Origin: a virus
Lineage: Duplodnaviria; Heunggongvirae; Uroviricota; Caudoviricetes
DNA: 36,646 bases
Strand: one strand, 5' to 3'
IMG/VR virus record: IMGVR_UViG_2548876701_000024
The position numbers were made by a program, and so were the translations under genes. Under the pieces are notes generated by a model. The model did not search any database. It was not told where the DNA came from and was given only the letters and a program-made list of their open reading frames with translations. Positions 1 to 36,359 of the stretch are shown in pieces. Numbering within the stretch: position 1 is the stretch's first letter; each line of letters starts with the position of its first letter.

Positions 1-1053
1 TTACGGGGTAATGCCAACCGCTGCCGCCACTTTGTCGCCACTTGGCAGCGTTGCCAGAGGATTGAAACGGAGCGCCGTTTCCAGATGATCCGGTGCCAGA
101 TGTGCGTAACGCATAGTCATTTTTATATCGTGGTGTCCGAGAATTTTTTGTAAGGCCAGAATGTTTCCACCCGACATCATGAAGTGCGCCGCAAACGTAT
201 GGCGCAGAACGTGTGTGAGTTGACCGCGAGGGAGCACGATAGACGTTTTTTCCATCACGGATAAAAATTGAAAATAGCAGTCTGTGAAGAAATTGAACCC
301 ATCAAGCGCCATGATCTCTTCGTAAAGCTCTTTACTGATAGGGATGCTTCTGTTTTTCTTCCCCTTCGTTCTGACAAAGGTAATTCGGTATTTGGTCACC
401 TGTGAGCGGGTAAGATTTACGGCTTCACGCCAGCGTGCGCCTGTGCTTAAGCATATCTTAACTACCAGTGCCAGAATTGGGTCCTGACGTTTGCAATCAG
501 CCAGCAATTCAACAATCTGCTCATGGGTAAGCCATGCCATCTCTTTTTCTGCGATGGTGAATTTTCGCATGTTCTCCAGTGGGTTCGGATACGACCATTC
601 GCCCAGACGGGATAGTTCGCTAAAAACACTACTTAGATAGCTTTGCTCCAGGTTAATGGTGACCGGGCTTGCTCCTTTCTTCCATTTCTCGCTGAAGTAG
701 ATCTCGCCTGTCAGGCGTTTATCTCGATAGTGGGCAAACATTTTAGAGGTGAGATCGGTTGCAAGAGGATTGCCTAGAGCGTCAACCATCAGCAGCAATT
801 TGTCATAGACATGCTGTCCAGCAGTCAGAGATTTACCATGTAGTTTGAACCATAGCTCAACCACGTCTTTCAGGGTTCGACGATCCACTGATTCGCCCAG
901 CCAGGGCTTTGATTCGGTTTCTTCCATCGTGTGGCGCTCAAAAGCCAGAGCTTCGCCTTTGGTGGCGAATTGTTTACGCACACGACGCCCACTTCGTCCG
1001 GCGGGGTAACATTCGCAAAGCCATTTCCCTGTGGTGAGTTTTCGTACTGCCAT
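1..1053 (-). CDS. int: Tyrosine integrase, P2/186 family
   Basis: ORF translation has tyrosine-recombinase C-terminal motifs (ARW.EA, HVLRHTFA, MRYAHL); start taken at the internal ATG (1051..1053) preceded by GGAGGG, where the protein begins MAVRKLTTG like P2 Int; stop at 1..3. Confidence 0.9.
   Translation of the reverse strand: MAVRKLTTGKWLCECYPAGRSGRRVRKQFATKGEALAFERHTMEETESKPWLGESVDRRTLKDVVELWFKLHGKSLTAGQHVYDKLLLMVDALGNPLATDLTSKMFAHYRDKRLTGEIYFSEKWKKGASPVTINLEQSYLSSVFSELSRLGEWSYPNPLENMRKFTIAEKEMAWLTHEQIVELLADCKRQDPILALVVKICLSTGARWREAVNLTRSQVTKYRITFVRTKGKKNRSIPISKELYEEIMALDGFNFFTDCYFQFLSVMEKTSIVLPRGQLTHVLRHTFAAHFMMSGGNILALQKILGHHDIKMTMRYAHLAPDHLETALRFNPLATLPSGDKVAAAVGITP
19..40. repeat. 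attL core candidate (CGCTGCCGCCACTTTGTCGCCA)
   Basis: 22-bp sequence repeated with one mismatch at 33792..33813; lies inside the 3' end of int, as expected for an att core next to the integrase. Confidence 0.6.
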
Positions 1054-1241
1054 AAAAAATGCCCTCCAGTAGAGAGCATTTTTACTGTATGTATAACCAG
1101 TGTCAATGTATGAAATCCTACGACCATACATCTCACTGAAGCCATAATGAAGTTGGCTATTCTTTTTGCTATGTGAGCATGTAACTTTTGCGGTTAACCT
1201 GCGGCTCATTTTTATTTTAGACGCAGATATAAAAACAAAAG

Positions 1242-1433
1242 TTATCGTGAGTTTTTAGTACAGATTTTTTTTGATTTACTAATAGTTCCATCATTGCAAA
1301 CGAATTTGCCATCTGAGGTACAGTGAGAAACACCTCCCTTTTTCCCTGAGCAGGGATAATTTCTAGCATAGGTAGTTAGTGGGTTTAATAACAAAGAACA
1401 TGACAAAATCACAAAAAATACCTTACCAAGCAT
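1242..1433 (-). CDS. Small exported or lipoprotein-like Cys-rich protein (63 aa), probable moron
   Basis: ATG with GGGAGG Shine-Dalgarno; N-terminal hydrophobic signal ([12 protein letters not shown]) followed by a 4-Cys mature region; AT-rich; sits between cI and int on the lysogenic strand. Confidence 0.5.
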
Positions 1434-1448
1434 AGTTTCCTCCCGGTA

Positions 1449-2018
1449 CTATTTAACATACTTGACTGTTAAACTTATAATTTTACCAATTATTTCAATG
1501 TCTTCTATCTTGCATTCGAAGGCTCTGTTTCCACCCTCGACGAAGATTCTTCCACCGGGTAAACGAGTAATGTCACGGATCGTTATTTCGCCATCAATAC
1601 TTATTACCCATTTACCATCACGTATATCATCAAATTCTTTATCACAAATAAATTCAGAATTGTTATCTGTGATGACAAAAGGTTTTTTAAACGTAGAGGG
1701 TAGAAATCCCTTATCAAAAATATAAAAACCGTCTTTCTGCAATGCTCCATCAGACAATAAATATTTTTCTACTTCTATAGTATTTGTATTTGCTGATGCT
1801 TGCTTTGAACCATGCCCTGTTGTTAGCCAATTAAGCGAGGTGCCCGTTTCAAGGGCGCACTGGATTACCCAATCTGCTGGAAAAATATCACGCATATAGC
1901 GCGTTGCCATGGTGCTCTTAGAAACACCTAAATGATCACAGAGAGCCTGACGAGTACCGAACCCATATGCTTCAACTAAACGTTCTATGGCTTTCTTACC
2001 GCCGCTATTGAAATCCAC
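1449..2018 (-). CDS. cI: Phage 186 CI-like immunity repressor
   Basis: HTH-like N-terminal region; lysogenic-strand position upstream of int; start placed at in-frame GTG (2016..2018) after GGAGGA, giving 189 aa; the longest ORF would run to 2105 but would cover the predicted pR promoter. Confidence 0.7.
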   Translation of the reverse strand: MDFNSGGKKAIERLVEAYGFGTRQALCDHLGVSKSTMATRYMRDIFPADWVIQCALETGTSLNWLTTGHGSKQASANTNTIEVEKYLLSDGALQKDGFYIFDKGFLPSTFKKPFVITDNNSEFICDKEFDDIRDGKWVISIDGEITIRDITRLPGGRIFVEGGNRAFECKIEDIEIIGKIISLTVKYVK

Positions 2019-2163: not shown

Positions 2164-2367
2164 ATGACACCTAACATTTCAATTACTCTGAATACACCAC
2201 ATGTCACAATCGAACGTTATAGCGAACTGACTGGCCTTTCTATTGATACGATTAACGACATGTTGGCTGATGGCCGACTACCTCGTCATCGTCTTCGTAA
2301 AGACAAAAAACGTGAAAAGGTAATGATTAACCTGGCTGCTCTGACTGTTGATGCTTTGTCTGCTTAA
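2164..2367 (+). CDS. apl: Apl/Cox-like excisionase and switch regulator
   Basis: 67-aa basic HTH protein, first gene of the rightward operon divergent from cI. Confidence 0.7.
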
Positions 2368-2431
2368 TAGACGTCTATTTTCGCAATAAGACGCTGAGTT
2401 CGATTTTGCGATAAGTTCGGAGTTGAAAACC

Positions 2432-2941
2432 ATGTTTGATTACCAAGTTTCCAAACATCCACATTTTGATGAAGCCTGTCGTGCATTCGCACTGCGCCAC
2501 AATCTGGTGCAACTGGCAGAACGTGCGGGCATGAATGTGCAGATTCTGCGGAACAAGCTGAACCCAGCTCAACCTCATTTATTAACCGCACCAGAAATCT
2601 GGCTGCTTACCGATCTGACTGAAGATTCAACGTTGGTAGATGGTTTTCTGGCACAGATTCATTGTCTGCCATGTGTACCGATTAATGAGGTAGCAAAAGA
2701 GAAACTGCCACATTACGTCATGAGTGCAACCGCAGAGATCGGGCGTGTTGCTGCAGGTGCGGTATCTGGCGATGTAAACACCAGTGCAGGTCGTCGTGAT
2801 GCTATCAGCAGCATTAACTCTGTAACACGACTGATGGCGCTGGCGGCTGTTTCATTGCAGGCCCGTTTACAGGCTAATCCTGCGATGGCGAGTGCAGTTG
2901 ATACCGTGACTGGCCTCGGTGCTTCATTCGGTTTGCTGTGA
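2432..2941 (+). CDS. cII: CII-like lysogeny establishment activator (186 CII family)
   Basis: Protein begins [19 protein letters not shown], matching my recollection of 186 CII; 169 aa from the ATG at 2432 (the listed ORF begins at an upstream TTG). Confidence 0.8.
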
Positions 2942-8652: not shown

Positions 8653-8868
8653 ATGTCAAGCATCGCCGCATTTAGCCTGGGTAACCCAGTTGAACGTCTG
8701 GCAAGGGTTCTTAAAGAGAACCAGGACAAACTCAATCTTAGTAAAGATGGTTTTGTGTCCGTAGACTTGTCTAACAAAAGAGCAATGGATGCCATCAAGG
8801 CACAGATGGATAAGCTTGAAGGCATCAAAACGAGCACTGTAAAAGAGAAAACTAATAGAACCAGATAA
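8653..8868 (+). CDS. Hypothetical small hydrophilic protein (71 aa), first gene of a two-gene cargo operon
   Basis: ATG with AAGGGGGAG Shine-Dalgarno; stop overlaps start of next gene (TAATG). Confidence 0.55.
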   Translation: MSSIAAFSLGNPVERLARVLKENQDKLNLSKDGFVSVDLSNKRAMDAIKAQMDKLEGIKTSTVKEKTNRTR

Positions 8869-9710
8869 TGGCAACATTACTTTTAGCAGTGATTTTGGTT
8901 AGTGGTTTTATTTATGTAAACCTATCACTTTCAACAAGATACCGATATAAGCGTTCCAACGGCTGGGACGCTTATTTTTTTGTGGCTGCCTGGGGTATCG
9001 TTTTTTTTCTCCTTGGCGGTTTTTTCACCTTTATTTTGAACGTCAGCGGAGGGTTTCGTTGGCTGGCTAATGCCTTGAATCTAACACCTGACAGTTTTAA
9101 TGGCATGTTGTCTTCATCGAAAGACAAACTTCAAAGAATAAATGAAATCAAACAGATAGCATGGGTTATGATTTCAATTGTCCTCGCTGCGATTTCAGGT
9201 TTTGGAAATAAGTTACGCACATCACGTGGAGATCGTCGCTGGGATGCCTTAGCTAAAGCTGTGGGTAATAACGCTTTCGAATCATTACTCATGGAAGCGT
9301 CCGCAAGACAGTTTCCGATCATAGCAACTCTGTCGTCTCGCAAAATCTATGTTGGTCTTGTTACTTGTCCGGCGTTAGAAAACGGGCTTTCAGAACACCT
9401 TGAACTTCTCCCGATGTTAAGCGGATATCGGGATAAAGATGATCTAACGATTAGTATCACGACTAACTATCACCAACATTATCTTGATAGTGGTGTGATA
9501 AGTGGAATGTCTCGGCTTAATATCGAAGATTTCCGTGTGCTCATACCAAAAGATGAGGTTGAAACAATTTCGTTTTTTGATACTGAGACATATAACAAAT
9601 TTAAAGAAAATGAAGCCAGGGATAGAAAGAGCTGTCGAAAGATTGGTAGTAAAAGTGCATCTTCGCGCAGCAAGCGTGCAGCAGATGCTGAGTCAAATGA
9701 TCGTGCATGA
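8868..9710 (+). CDS. Hypothetical membrane protein (280 aa), three predicted N-terminal TM helices plus soluble C-terminal domain
   Basis: Hydrophobic stretches at about residues 3-20, 35-57 and 96-112; translationally coupled to the upstream ORF; in the gpA-to-cos variable region. Confidence 0.65.
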   Translation: MATLLLAVILVSGFIYVNLSLSTRYRYKRSNGWDAYFFVAAWGIVFFLLGGFFTFILNVSGGFRWLANALNLTPDSFNGMLSSSKDKLQRINEIKQIAWVMISIVLAAISGFGNKLRTSRGDRRWDALAKAVGNNAFESLLMEASARQFPIIATLSSRKIYVGLVTCPALENGLSEHLELLPMLSGYRDKDDLTISITTNYHQHYLDSGVISGMSRLNIEDFRVLIPKDEVETISFFDTETYNKFKENEARDRKSCRKIGSKSASSRSKRAADAESNDRA

Positions 9711-10050: not shown

Positions 10051-11346
10051 ATGAATGAAGAATTTCAAAAAACGATTAACTCATTATATAGCTTAAAAAA
10101 AGCTGTTGAAAAAGTGGCTACTGACGAAACTAACCTTTCGGATGTGAAAGGTGTTAAAGCTCCTGCTTTATATCCTGTTGATTTTCTAGATATGATTGGT
10201 TTTATAATAAGAAAAATAGAAAAATATGGTGAAGTGGAATTAACGGATGATGAGATTTCTGAACTGAGTTTTTTACCGATTAGAATTGATAATATTAAAG
10301 AAAATATAGTTCCACATCTCTTTGGAAATAACTCGTCTGATGCTATTTCATCATTTGTTGAAACTATTGCGTTTATTACTCAGTATTTAGATGACATTTT
10401 CTCTTTAGAACGACTGGATAATGCTAATCTTCTGCCGAGAAATATGACAAGAAAAATAAAAAGCATGGAGGCTAGGTTAAATAAAGCAGCCCCTGATATA
10501 GAATCATTGGAAAATAAGATAAATAAAATAAATGATGCTCATGTTGCGGCTGAAAACATTCCTATCGATTTGGAGGAATTACGCTCTTATAATAAGGAAG
10601 CTATGGAGTTAAAAGAAAAGATTAATAAATCAATGTTTAATCTTAGTGTCTTAGAAGAAAAAGGACGTGATATTTTAGATAAAATGACACAACAAAATGT
10701 CGAAGCAGCAAAATATCTCGAAATGTGTGAGCAGGCTATTAGAGCATCGACATCTAAAGGTTTAGCCGGTGCTTTTGAAATCAAGGCTAATAAATTAAAT
10801 AATAGTATCCAACTATGGGTTTTGGGATTGGCAAGTGCACTGGCGACGGGGGGATACGTGGGTTTTGAAAGGCTCAAGGTTTTATCTGATGTGCTAAACA
10901 ATGCAAATCCAAATGCAGTAGTTATTGTTACTCAGTTACTTCTTTCAGTGTTCAGTATAGGAGCTCCGTTATGGTTTGCATGGCTCTCTACAAAACAAAT
11001 AAATCAAAGATTTAAATTGGCAGAGGATTATGCTTTTAAGGCTTCAGTAGCGAAGGCTTACGAAGGCTATCGAAATGAAGCAAGTAAGGTATCTAATGGA
11101 GAATTTGAAAGGCGTTTATTTGATTCGGCATTGAGTCGTCTCGAAGAAGCACCTTTGCGCTTTGTGAAGGATGATGACCATGCAACCCCTTGGAATGAGT
11201 TGTTAAATTCGAAAGCATTCAATAAGTTCCTTGACGCTTCTGTTGAAAATGTGAATTTTGTTAAAGGGATTATTAGCAAGAAAACAGGTGGGGCGAGAAT
11301 GGCTAGTAATGATTCGGCTATTATTCCAGAAAAAAAAGTTGAATGA
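10051..11346 (+). CDS. Hypothetical 431-aa protein; coiled-coil-rich N-terminal region, two predicted TM helices (about residues 253-272 and 288-311), C-terminal soluble domain
   Basis: Long ORF in a strongly AT-rich segment unlike the phage backbone; hydrophobic helices evident in the translation; between cos and portal gene Q. Confidence 0.7.
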   Translation: MNEEFQKTINSLYSLKKAVEKVATDETNLSDVKGVKAPALYPVDFLDMIGFIIRKIEKYGEVELTDDEISELSFLPIRIDNIKENIVPHLFGNNSSDAISSFVETIAFITQYLDDIFSLERLDNANLLPRNMTRKIKSMEARLNKAAPDIESLENKINKINDAHVAAENIPIDLEELRSYNKEAMELKEKINKSMFNLSVLEEKGRDILDKMTQQNVEAAKYLEMCEQAIRASTSKGLAGAFEIKANKLNNSIQLWVLGLASALATGGYVGFERLKVLSDVLNNANPNAVVIVTQLLLSVFSIGAPLWFAWLSTKQINQRFKLAEDYAFKASVAKAYEGYRNEASKVSNGEFERRLFDSALSRLEEAPLRFVKDDDHATPWNELLNSKAFNKFLDASVENVNFVKGIISKKTGGARMASNDSAIIPEKKVE

Positions 11347-34026: not shown

Positions 34027-35712
34027 TTATCCTAATCCTGGCCATACCATGACGATGATTGTCCCTGCCAGCGTCAGCAGGACGTTGGCGATTGCGTAGG
34101 TGCCCGCATAGCCCAGCGCAGGGATGTTACTGCGAGCTGTATCACTGATGATCTCCATTGCCGGCGCGCAGGTGCGTGCGCCCATCATTGCGCCGAACAA
34201 CAGTGCGCGGTTCATTCGCAATACATAAGCACCGAACAAGAAACAGATAACCACGGGCACAAGACTGACAATTAATCCGGCAATCAACATCTGACCGCCA
34301 ATCGCGCCCAGGCCGTTATTAATACCGCTACCGGCGCTCAGACCAACGCCTGCCATAAACACCATCAAGCCGAACTCTTTCACCATGCTTAATGCACCTT
34401 GCGGAATGTAACCGAAGGTCGGGTGGTTAGCACGCATAAAGCCCAGCATAATTCCGGCGAATAACAACCCGGCAGCGTTCCCCATGCCGAAACTGAATGT
34501 GCTGAACTGGAAGGTGATCATCCCGATCATCAGCCCAATAACAAAGAAGGCGCAAAATGCCAGCAGGTCAGTGACCTGGCTGTGAATCGAGATAAAGCCG
34601 ATGCGATCGGCGATGGTTTTTACGCGACGGGCATCACCGCTGACTTGTAAAACGTCACCTTTGTTAAGCACGACGTTGTCATCTATCGGCATCTCAATCT
34701 GGCTACGAATGACGCGGTTAAGGAAGCAACCGTGATCGGTCAACTTCAGTTGTGCGAGACGTTTACCTACAGCGTTATGGTTTTTAACGACCACTTCTTC
34801 AGTGACGATACGCATGTCGAGAAGGTCACGATCGAAAACTTCTTTACCGTTACGGAAGCTGGGATCGAGTCGGGCATGGGCGTCGGGATAGCCTACCAAC
34901 GCTATTTCATCGCCCATTTGTAGCACGGCATCACCGTCTGGATTTGCCAGAATCCCGTTACGTCGAATACGTTCAATGTAGCAGCCGGTTTGTCGATAAA
35001 TACCCAGTTCACGCAGATTTTTGCCGTCGGTCCAGGCCACCAGCTCCGGGCCGACGCGATAGGCGCGGATCACCGGTAAATAAACCTTACGGTTGGCATC
35101 AGTGTCCAGGCCACGTTCGCGGGCGATTTGCTGGGCGCTGGTCTGTAAGTCCTGATGCTGCAATTTCGGCAAGTAACGCGCACCAACAATCAAACTCACC
35201 AGACCGATTAAATAGGTTAAGGCATACCCGAGGCTCAGATTATCCAGTGCCAGTGAGAGCTGCCTGCTTTCCATGCCGGAATGACGCAGTGTATCGCCAG
35301 CACCGACCAGAACCGGTGTCGACGTCATAGAGCCTGCTAACATACCGGCCGTCAGGCCAATATCCCAGCCAAACAGCTTACCTAACCCTAAGGCGATCAC
35401 CAGCGCACTGCCAACCATCACCAGTGCTAACATTAGGTAATTTTTCCCATCGCGAAAAAAAATGGAAAAAAAGTTCGGTCCGGCTTCGACCCCGACGCAG
35501 AAAATAAACAGCATAAAGCCAAGATTAAGCGCATCGGTGTTAATGCTGAAATGTTGTTGGCCTAATAACAGCGATACGACTAAAACGCCAATGGAATTAC
35601 CCAGTTGGATCGAACCAAGTCGTAACTTTCCGAGACATAGCCCAAGCGCGAGGACCACAAATAATAACAGAATGTAATTCCCATTTAACAATTCGGCGAC
35701 GTTTATATTCAC
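34027..35712 (-). CDS. ybjL: Putative transport protein YbjL (AAE-family transporter)
   Basis: 561-aa multi-TM protein starting [20 protein letters not shown], recognised as E. coli YbjL. Confidence 0.88.
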
Positions 35713-35981
35713 GGAGGCTAACTTCTTGTTTACTAGTAAGCTGTTGAAAGAAATGGTAATTTACGATAATGTTTTTTACCAGAATTCAGGGCGCAGATTC
35801 ATTCAGCGCACCTAAACGATAGTAAAGTAACAATATATTTTACTAGTGTAATCACATTAGGTATCAACGGCTATATGAATTGCGTTGGCCTATATTAGCA
35901 TGGAATGCGAAGCGGCTTTATCTTACTGAACGCCACACTGGCGAAAAATGTGTTCGATAGACGCAGTGTCAGGAGGAACGA

Positions 35982-36359
35982 GTGAAACATAAACAACGTT
36001 GGGCGGGGGCAATCTGCTGTTTTGTCCTCTTCATTGTGGTGTGCCTTTTTCTGGCGACGCACATGAAAGGCGCTTTTCGGGCTGCCGGGCATCCTGAAAT
36101 CGGCTTGCTATTTTTCATTCTTCCTGGAGCAGTCGCCAGCTTCTTTTCACAGCGTAGAGAAGTCCTGAAACCTCTATTTGGCGCAATGCTGGCGGCACCC
36201 TGTTCAATGCTCATTATGCGGCTGTTTTTTTCACCGACGCGCTCATTCTGGCAAGAGCTGGCATGGTTACTAAGCGCGGTGTTCTGGTGTGCGCTGGGGG
36301 CACTGTGTTTCTTATTTATCAGTAGTTTGTTTAAACCACAGCACAGAAAAAATCAGTAA
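35982..36359 (+). CDS. ybjM: Inner membrane protein YbjM
   Basis: 125-aa membrane protein, GTG start after AGGAGG; lies between ybjL and grxA as in E. coli K-12. Confidence 0.7.
   Translation: MKHKQRWAGAICCFVLFIVVCLFLATHMKGAFRAAGHPEIGLLFFILPGAVASFFSQRREVLKPLFGAMLAAPCSMLIMRLFFSPTRSFWQELAWLLSAVFWCALGALCFLFISSLFKPQHRKNQ

Follow-up and report, generated by a model that had tools for sequence, protein, structure and literature searches.

What is a short, cysteine-rich, exported protein doing between the repressor gene and the integrase gene of a temperate phage? The question is raised by a gene at positions 1242-1433, minus strand, of the IMG/VR virus record IMGVR_UViG_2548876701_000024, a stretch of Caudoviricetes DNA of 36,646 nucleotides that is called the window throughout. 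Here, we propose with high confidence that this gene is a real, exported, and lysogen-expressed cargo gene of the YdcA family. As to its purpose, we tentatively favour the view, drawn by analogy with other genes found in the same position, that the product is an exclusion factor acting at the level of the lysogen's envelope.

The gene as an object is already known, catalogued, and annotated: an identical protein stands in public databases as "YdcA family protein", and RefSeq gives the same name to the gene at the same position. What may be new are the links at the level of the family, namely its relation to the Legionella secretion-system subunit Dis2, its fusions to nucleases, its coupling to the phage repressor, and a homologue that was missed in the annotation of phage HP2. 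The window gene also offers a clean handle on the family, being a single 192-nt gene that is constitutively coupled to a prophage repressor.

The gene, its family, and its exported product

Is the open reading frame (ORF) a gene at all? The frame is short and lies in AT-rich sequence (34% GC over the ORF and 38% over the neighbouring repressor gene cI, against 50.7% for the whole window), where ORFs arise easily, so that one might take it for a spurious ORF or a non-coding spacer. We give that explanation a negligible chance. The protein matches phrog_6000 over its full length (E 2.8e-34, profile positions 1-56 of 56) and scores 116 bits with NCBIfam NF007463/PRK10040, whose curated cutoff is 93, residues 5-63 aligning with positions 1-58 of the 58 in the profile. 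An exhaustive HMMER search returned relatives in 313 clusters at 50% identity, and one homologue, Dis2, is a solved protein. Among the alleles carried by E. coli prophages, synonymous differences (pS 0.23-0.39) far exceed nonsynonymous ones (pN 0.007-0.039), for a pN/pS of roughly 0.03-0.1, with the few replacements confined to the signal peptide or to the C-terminal tail. This purifying selection is seen in the 63-residue frame only; an overlapping ORF of 50 residues (1217..1369, minus strand) was rejected, its frame gathering radical changes freely while the longer frame is conserved. Because the profiles match, the relatives are so many, and selection acts in this frame and no other, the YdcA-family gene is real, and positions 1242-1433 are confirmed as a genuine gene under purifying selection.

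Membership in PF27300 comes from a precomputed assignment to the cluster representative, which is 97% identical to the window protein. Our local Pfam scan returned only a sub-threshold GULLO2-like match, the local copy of Pfam predating PF27300. The features that bear on the gene itself are as follows.

1242..1433, minus strand: the 63-residue YdcA-family coding sequence, with its stop codon TAA at 1244..1242 (ORF list and translation, phrog_6000, NF007463, RefSeq, pN/pS)
1365..1433, minus strand: the part coding for the predicted signal peptide, residues 1-23 (a variable hydrophobic N-terminus, an invariant Ala at -1, then the conserved mature domain)
1245..1364, minus strand: the mature 40-residue domain (four cysteines, pI 9.7, net charge about +6.8, 4.29 kDa; conserved motifs; AlphaFold core)
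1439..1444, minus strand: the Shine-Dalgarno sequence GGGAGG, read from the sequence, 5 nt before the ATG and within the 15-nt spacer between cI and the ydcA-like gene (1434..1448)

A first-pass annotation of this DNA, made from the letters alone without database searches, had described a 63-residue ORF with a strong ribosome-binding site in an AT-rich stretch. Its coordinates and translation agree exactly with ours, GGGAGG stands 5 nt before the ATG, and the base composition is as it said. It had also allowed that the ORF might prove spurious if homologues were absent and the ribosome-binding site unused, a doubt that the matches to phrog_6000, to NF007463, and to 313 clusters of relatives dispel.

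The same annotation called the product a small Cys-rich exported protein with an N-terminal signal or lipoprotein-like segment and four cysteines in a mature part of some 40 residues. The protein begins with a short basic n-region (MLGK), followed by a hydrophobic core of 12 residues and a c-region ending in TYA, and the Ala at -1 is invariant in the alignment (75 of the 75 homologues inspected). The predicted cleavage by signal peptidase I, as we infer it from this alignment, falls after Ala23 and leaves 40 residues, in which Cys28, Cys38, Cys46, and Cys58 are all conserved. A lipoprotein reading, with cleavage by signal peptidase II, was considered and rejected, Cys12 being neither conserved nor far enough along the chain (only 11 residues from Met1); a cysteine occurs anywhere in the signal region of only 22 of 79 homologues. 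Of the two options first offered for the N-terminus, the signal peptide thus stands and the lipoprotein falls, and the conserved architecture supports the protein being a Sec/signal peptidase I substrate.

The signal peptides vary, while almost every residue of the mature domain is conserved between alpha-, beta-, and gamma-proteobacteria. Its invariant or near-invariant residues are P, C, S, G, K, G, and G, a further C, and then F.C.DG..S.SK..C. AlphaFold predicts a confident small core with two short strands (pLDDT 84-92 over residues 31-60). By every feature tested in its sequence the window protein is a member of the YdcA family, consisting of a signal peptide followed by a single four-Cys domain with the PCSGKKGG and F.C.DG..S.SK..C motifs.

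The family takes its name from ydcA (YdcA of E. coli K-12), a core gene of E. coli that encodes a predicted periplasmic protein of 57 residues with a signal sequence and with no known function. YdcA and the window protein share the signal peptide and a domain of about 35 residues with four cysteines (PCSGKKGG...C...F.C.DG..S.SKK.C), and the window gene, carried by a phage, is a paralogue whose product matches chromosomal YdcA at about 57% identity over residues 10-59. The two differ in setting, the chromosomal gene adjoining rydC/cybB and the window gene lying in a lysogenic operon. Deletion of ydcA sensitised E. coli W to 300 mM 3-hydroxypropionate, and the gene is reported to be controlled by YdcI and induced at pH 5. 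A literature search for the accessions, PF27300, and phrog_6000 found nothing on function, in agreement with the first-pass annotation, which had listed the function as unknown.

Coupling to the repressor and the cI-int slot

At its left end the window covers the part of a P2/186-like prophage that governs immunity and integration; the features around the gene are as follows.

1449..2018, minus strand: the cI repressor gene, of 186/P2 type, upstream in the same transcription unit (Phage_CI_repr E 3.3e-31, Phage_CI_C E 4.7e-29; RefSeq coordinates identical)
1054..1241, minus strand: the 188-nt spacer from the ydcA-like gene to int, highly structured as RNA, with the junction of int module and cargo near 1111-1131
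1055..1083, minus strand: a terminator-like hairpin of putative function (13-bp stem, dG -14.1 kcal/mol), after which come a U-run and then the int AUG
1078..1106, minus strand: a promoter-like TTGACA-17-AAAAAT upstream of int, a consensus match only (10/12), which overlaps the 5' arm of the hairpin
1..1053, minus strand: the tyrosine integrase gene int, with its ATG at 1053..1051 (Int_N E 3.2e-32, Phage_integrase E 1.4e-21)

The ATG of the ydcA-like gene stands 15 nt past the cI stop codon (TAG, 1451..1449) on the same strand, and a sequence scan found no terminator-like site between the two. The arrangement supports the earlier suggestion that the gene belongs to the lysogenic transcript. 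Several cI alleles and several immunity types in E. coli share the 15-nt linkage, and a Yersinia prophage has the same order of cI, a 58-residue homologue, and int. Haemophilus phages HP2/S2 carry a homologue of 60 residues and 54% identity, left without annotation (AY027935 2489-2647, complement); the first base of its ATG is also the final one of the cI stop codon, and orf1(S) and int follow it. Both this homologue and the window gene come directly after cI and before int. The HP2/S2 ORF belongs to a different phage genus and host and is followed by a gene for a secreted OB-fold protein, and it escaped annotation whereas the window gene did not.

Where does the transcript end? The minus-strand RNA of positions 1040-1260 folds with -62.8 kcal/mol (z = -5.4) and is unusually structured, and the 3' arm of the hairpin at 1083..1055 holds the Shine-Dalgarno sequence of int (GGAGGG). 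A hairpin of different sequence lies at the equivalent place before int in phage 813R9 and in the Yersinia prophage; no equivalent hairpin is present where int overlaps the preceding gene, as in RE-2010, K139, and HP2. The sequence of the promoter-like TTGACA site is conserved in the BL21, 4LV2017, 813R9, and Yersinia relatives. From these patterns we infer that the cI-ydcA transcript from pL largely ends before int, probably at the hairpin, and that int would be read from its own promoter, which suggests that int is insulated from the transcript of cI and cargo. Another promoter-like sequence, TTAACA-17-TATAAT (1453-1481, plus strand, 11/12), faces the 3' end of cI in the antisense direction; in DNA so rich in AT it may have arisen by chance.

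The position itself is a variable cargo hotspot. Phages that carry different cargo are homologous to the int module only as far as window positions 1111-1131. In Salmonella phage RE-2010 the slot is empty, cI abutting int; in Escherichia phage vB_EcoM-813R9, which like the window prophage sits beside rcdA, it holds a 558-residue match to PD-Lambda-1 (E 3e-120); in Klebsiella phage 4LV2017 it holds an unrelated protein of 349 residues. E. coli STIN_95 (NZ_CP054965.1) has, in order, cI, a 60-residue YdcA-like gene with a different C-terminal tail, a KAP NTPase that matches PDC-S20 (E 2e-171), and int, so that the new cargo was added downstream of the YdcA-like gene and did not replace it. Vibrio phage K139 fills the slot with orf2 and with glo, whose annotation reads "periplasmic protein; involved in phage exclusion". 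This variation from phage to phage bears out the moron position between cI and int that the first-pass annotation had proposed. A hotspot between cI and int has been described for K139-like phages (PMC9122126), one between integrase and primase for P2-like phages (PMC13586616), and the defence cargo of P2-like hotspots has also been reported (Rousset et al. 2022; NAR 2026 gkag898).

Two of these neighbours in position deserve a closer comparison. K139 glo, from a P2/HP1-related phage, occupies the PL-cI-cargo-int slot and encodes a signal peptide, as the window gene does; Glo has 137 residues and is not Cys-rich, the likeness being one of position and compartment only. Homology between the two was rejected (BLASTP E 0.16). 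PD-Lambda-1 and the PDC-S20/KAP NTPase occupy the same cI-int interval in sister prophages at the same chromosomal site; these are large cytoplasmic NTPases, in contrast to an exported protein of 63 residues, and in STIN_95 the two kinds of cargo coexist.

The cI-ydcA-int segment is common in E. coli, being at least 80% present in about 591 of 5426 complete genomes (~11%), BL21 derivatives included. In a collection of isolated phage genomes, a megablast search with the region matched the 5' end of int only and found no Escherichia phage with a ydcA-like gene.

Relatives of the domain and the proposed role of the protein

The only significant relative of known structure is Dis2 (Lpg0823; PDB 7MUC/7MUD, chain AN), a subunit of the outer-membrane cap in the Dot/Icm secretion system of Legionella that was published as Legionella-specific and without structural neighbours. 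The YdcA profile aligns with both of its lobes (E 3.7e-5), and the mature window sequence alone finds it at E 2.2e-4. Dis2 is also the top Foldseek match to the predicted fold (probability 0.94, 39% identity over 38 columns), with an E-value of 0.14. A Dis2-like metagenomic protein has a precomputed PF27300 match and aligns with the YdcA profile in hhalign at E 5.8e-6. We rate the similarity to Dis2 in sequence and fold as moderate. In the periplasmic complex, where it is modelled from residue 40, Dis2 has two tandem lobes and five disulfides and, close to the outer membrane, contacts DotK, DotC, and DotD. Dis2 would appear to have arisen by tandem duplication of the widespread YdcA/PF27300 domain. 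Both Dis2 and the window protein are exported and disulfide-rich. The window protein has a single domain with four mature cysteines where Dis2 has two lobes and five disulfides, and the window contains no secretion-system genes, consisting of the P2/186-like prophage and two flanking host genes; since it differs from Dis2 on both counts, the window protein is a relative of Dis2 and not its orthologue. The link would thus place in a wider family a subunit that had been reported as species-specific and as lacking structural relatives.

At least 535 viral contigs carry a YdcA-family gene; the 80 kept from a scan of viral contigs for diversity were all near-identical copies from E. coli. Phages of Moraxella catarrhalis carry a family gene between tail genes, phages of Acinetobacter and Pseudomonas are also carriers, and large plasmids of Acinetobacter and Rhizobium have YdcA-family genes as well. 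On MOBQ plasmids of 3.9-4.1 kb, such as pApiMCR53a (728-904) and pGFJ6 (640-816) of Acinetobacter, the family gene is one of only five or six and lies directly after a TraD-type relaxosome gene. This neighbour is the probable source of a stray UniRef name, "conjugal transfer protein".

The domain also occurs in longer architectures, which came from the search with representatives; the 120 matches listed by the profile search are all single-domain. Some proteins have two or three tandem copies and others a long Lys/Ala-rich tail, and in some a signal peptide and YdcA domain are fused N-terminally to a Staphylococcal-nuclease-like (SNase) or a DNA/RNA non-specific endonuclease (Endonuclease_NS) domain. 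In beta-proteobacteria and rhizobia the YdcA domain is joined to a Cys-rich GPRGG module resembling the PBCV basic adaptor domain, and a Comamonas protein with this fusion reaches the Pfam cutoff for that domain.

In light of these relatives, what might the protein do in a lysogen? In the scheme we favour, the lysogenic promoter of the P2/186-like prophage would drive a transcript that spans cI and the ydcA-like gene, and the latter would be translated from a strong ribosome-binding site of its own. The 63-residue precursor would be exported by Sec and cut after Ala23, releasing into the periplasm a strongly cationic mini-protein of 40 residues and about 4.3 kDa with two disulfides. As far as this point the scheme is strongly supported: co-transcription and independent translation by the arrangement described above, and export of a small, disulfide-stabilised, cationic periplasmic product by the conserved signal-peptide architecture, the literature on E. 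coli YdcA, and the presence of disulfide-bonded Dis2 in a periplasmic complex. Much as Dis2 attaches to lipoproteins of the outer membrane, the mini-protein may then bind a conserved, probably anionic component of the envelope close to that membrane. A docking role finds support in Dis2 being the top match in both sequence and fold and contacting DotK, DotC, and DotD; an anionic target, in the charge of +3 to +6 on the Cys-to-Cys core of stand-alone YdcA domains and in the fusions to secreted nucleases of two unrelated folds and to the basic PBCV module. Binding would alter the envelope of the lysogen, and the pay-off would be hindered entry of foreign DNA (that of a superinfecting phage, possibly also conjugative or transforming DNA), so that as an exclusion factor the protein would be a counterpart of K139's periplasmic Glo. 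We favour exclusion because the slot is shared with PD-Lambda-1, PDC-S20, and Glo, and because the gene is coupled to the repressor in unrelated P2-like lineages and enriched on phages and minimal plasmids. If this is correct, the protein is among the smallest exclusion factors known, and a function is given to hundreds of homologues on phages, plasmids, and chromosomes.

Several observations weigh against exclusion. The location between cI and int is a weak argument for it, as hotspots also hold non-defence cargo, and no defence model in PADLOC-DB 2.0 matches the window protein at E <= 0.01. Many of the homologues sit on chromosomes of alpha-, beta-, and gamma-proteobacteria, among unrelated neighbours and in non-mobile contexts; these many copies, the core E. 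coli ydcA included, argue for a general role in the envelope over a dedicated anti-phage one. No conserved operon partner emerged from the survey of neighbours, in which the nearest genes on either side at 73-75 species-level loci match 55-56 Pfam families, the commonest of them 3-6 times. The sole phenotypes reported for ydcA concern acid and 3-hydroxypropionate stress, and loss of Dis2 has only subtle effects on its secretion system. Lastly, the nuclease-fused copies and the lobes of Dis2 are near neutral (0 to +1). For this reason the positive charge is not intrinsic to the fold and the nuclease fusions are not simply readable as evidence of DNA binding, and DNA binding through positive charge is weakened as a generic function of the domain.

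The alternative we find possible, and nearly as likely as exclusion, is that the prophage supplies a further, constitutive copy of a gene doing the job of chromosomal YdcA, namely tolerance of acid or organic-acid stress at the envelope, to the benefit of the host and without relation to phages. The sensitivity of the E. coli deletion strain and the YdcI-controlled, acid-induced expression of ydcA are what one would expect of such a gene, as are the close similarity of the prophage and chromosomal mature domains and the many homologues in ordinary chromosomal neighbourhoods, and the window carries a second envelope-modifying cargo gene, an acyltransferase (Acyl_transf_3). The stress phenotype, though, comes from a single study and is fully suppressed by deletion of yieP, and its authors call the involvement unclear; stress tolerance would also fail to explain why the family is so enriched on phages and on very small mobilizable plasmids, and why unrelated P2-like lineages couple it so tightly to cI. 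Were it nonetheless the answer, the gene would be an ordinary lysogenic-conversion gene. It is distinctly unlikely that the protein instead binds tightly to, and inhibits, an enzyme that resides in the periplasm or comes in from outside, such as a phage tail lysozyme, a transglycosylase, or a protease. T4 Spackle is a precedent for an inhibitor of a phage tail lysozyme or transglycosylase. Inhibitors are typically of this size, exported, and built on a rigid disulfide scaffold, and nearly every surface residue is conserved across classes of Proteobacteria; set against this, the survey of neighbours found no enzyme partner encoded nearby, and Dis2 acts as a structural subunit. A weak resemblance to Pin-II proteinase inhibitors (E 0.07-3) is non-significant and pairs four cysteines with a pattern of eight, and membership of that family was rejected. 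Less probable still, and by a long way less so than stress tolerance, is a secreted cationic antimicrobial or bacteriocin-like peptide aimed at the lysogen's competitors. A pI of 9.7, a disulfide-stabilised form like that of defensins, and carriage on small plasmids would suit such a peptide; with a Sec signal only and no dedicated exporter, a 4.3-kDa product would stay in the periplasm, no immunity or export genes adjoin the gene in the contexts examined, and E. coli has a core chromosomal copy.

A broader extension of the exclusion scheme, which we think rather unlikely, is that YdcA mini-proteins are in general minimal periplasmic blockers of DNA entry, some 40 residues long and widespread on phages, small plasmids, and chromosomes across the Proteobacteria, which would dock on outer-membrane-proximal conduits or on DNA in transit and share their ancestry with Dis2. 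If so, the cI-coupled copy in P2-like prophages would be a constitutive exclusion determinant present in about one E. coli genome in nine.

The rest of the prophage

Beyond cI, the window continues with the following genes, and closes with host DNA.

2164..2367, plus strand: a Cox/Apl-like gene
about 2423..2941, plus strand: the CII gene, followed by fil and replication genes
34027..36359, right end of the window: host DNA with ybjL-like (Asp-Al_Ex/TrkA_C transporter) and YbjM genes

Because ybjL- and ybjM-like host genes occupy 34027-36359, the prophage ends before about 34 kb. With rcdA as the left neighbour in a near-identical E. coli prophage, it sits between rcdA and ybjL.

Further AT-rich genes lie within the prophage. 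Two ORFs with 33-43% GC, at 8868-9710 (plus strand, 280 residues) and 10051-11346 (plus strand, 431 residues), stand between the replication and portal genes, an interval that is the main defence hotspot of P2-like phages, and are candidate cargo; neither had an above-threshold Pfam match or a PADLOC match. The Acyl_transf_3 acyltransferase gene (25189-26322, minus strand, 377 residues), also AT-rich, lies among the tail genes on the opposite strand to them and is probably a conversion gene for acylation of the envelope or O-antigen.
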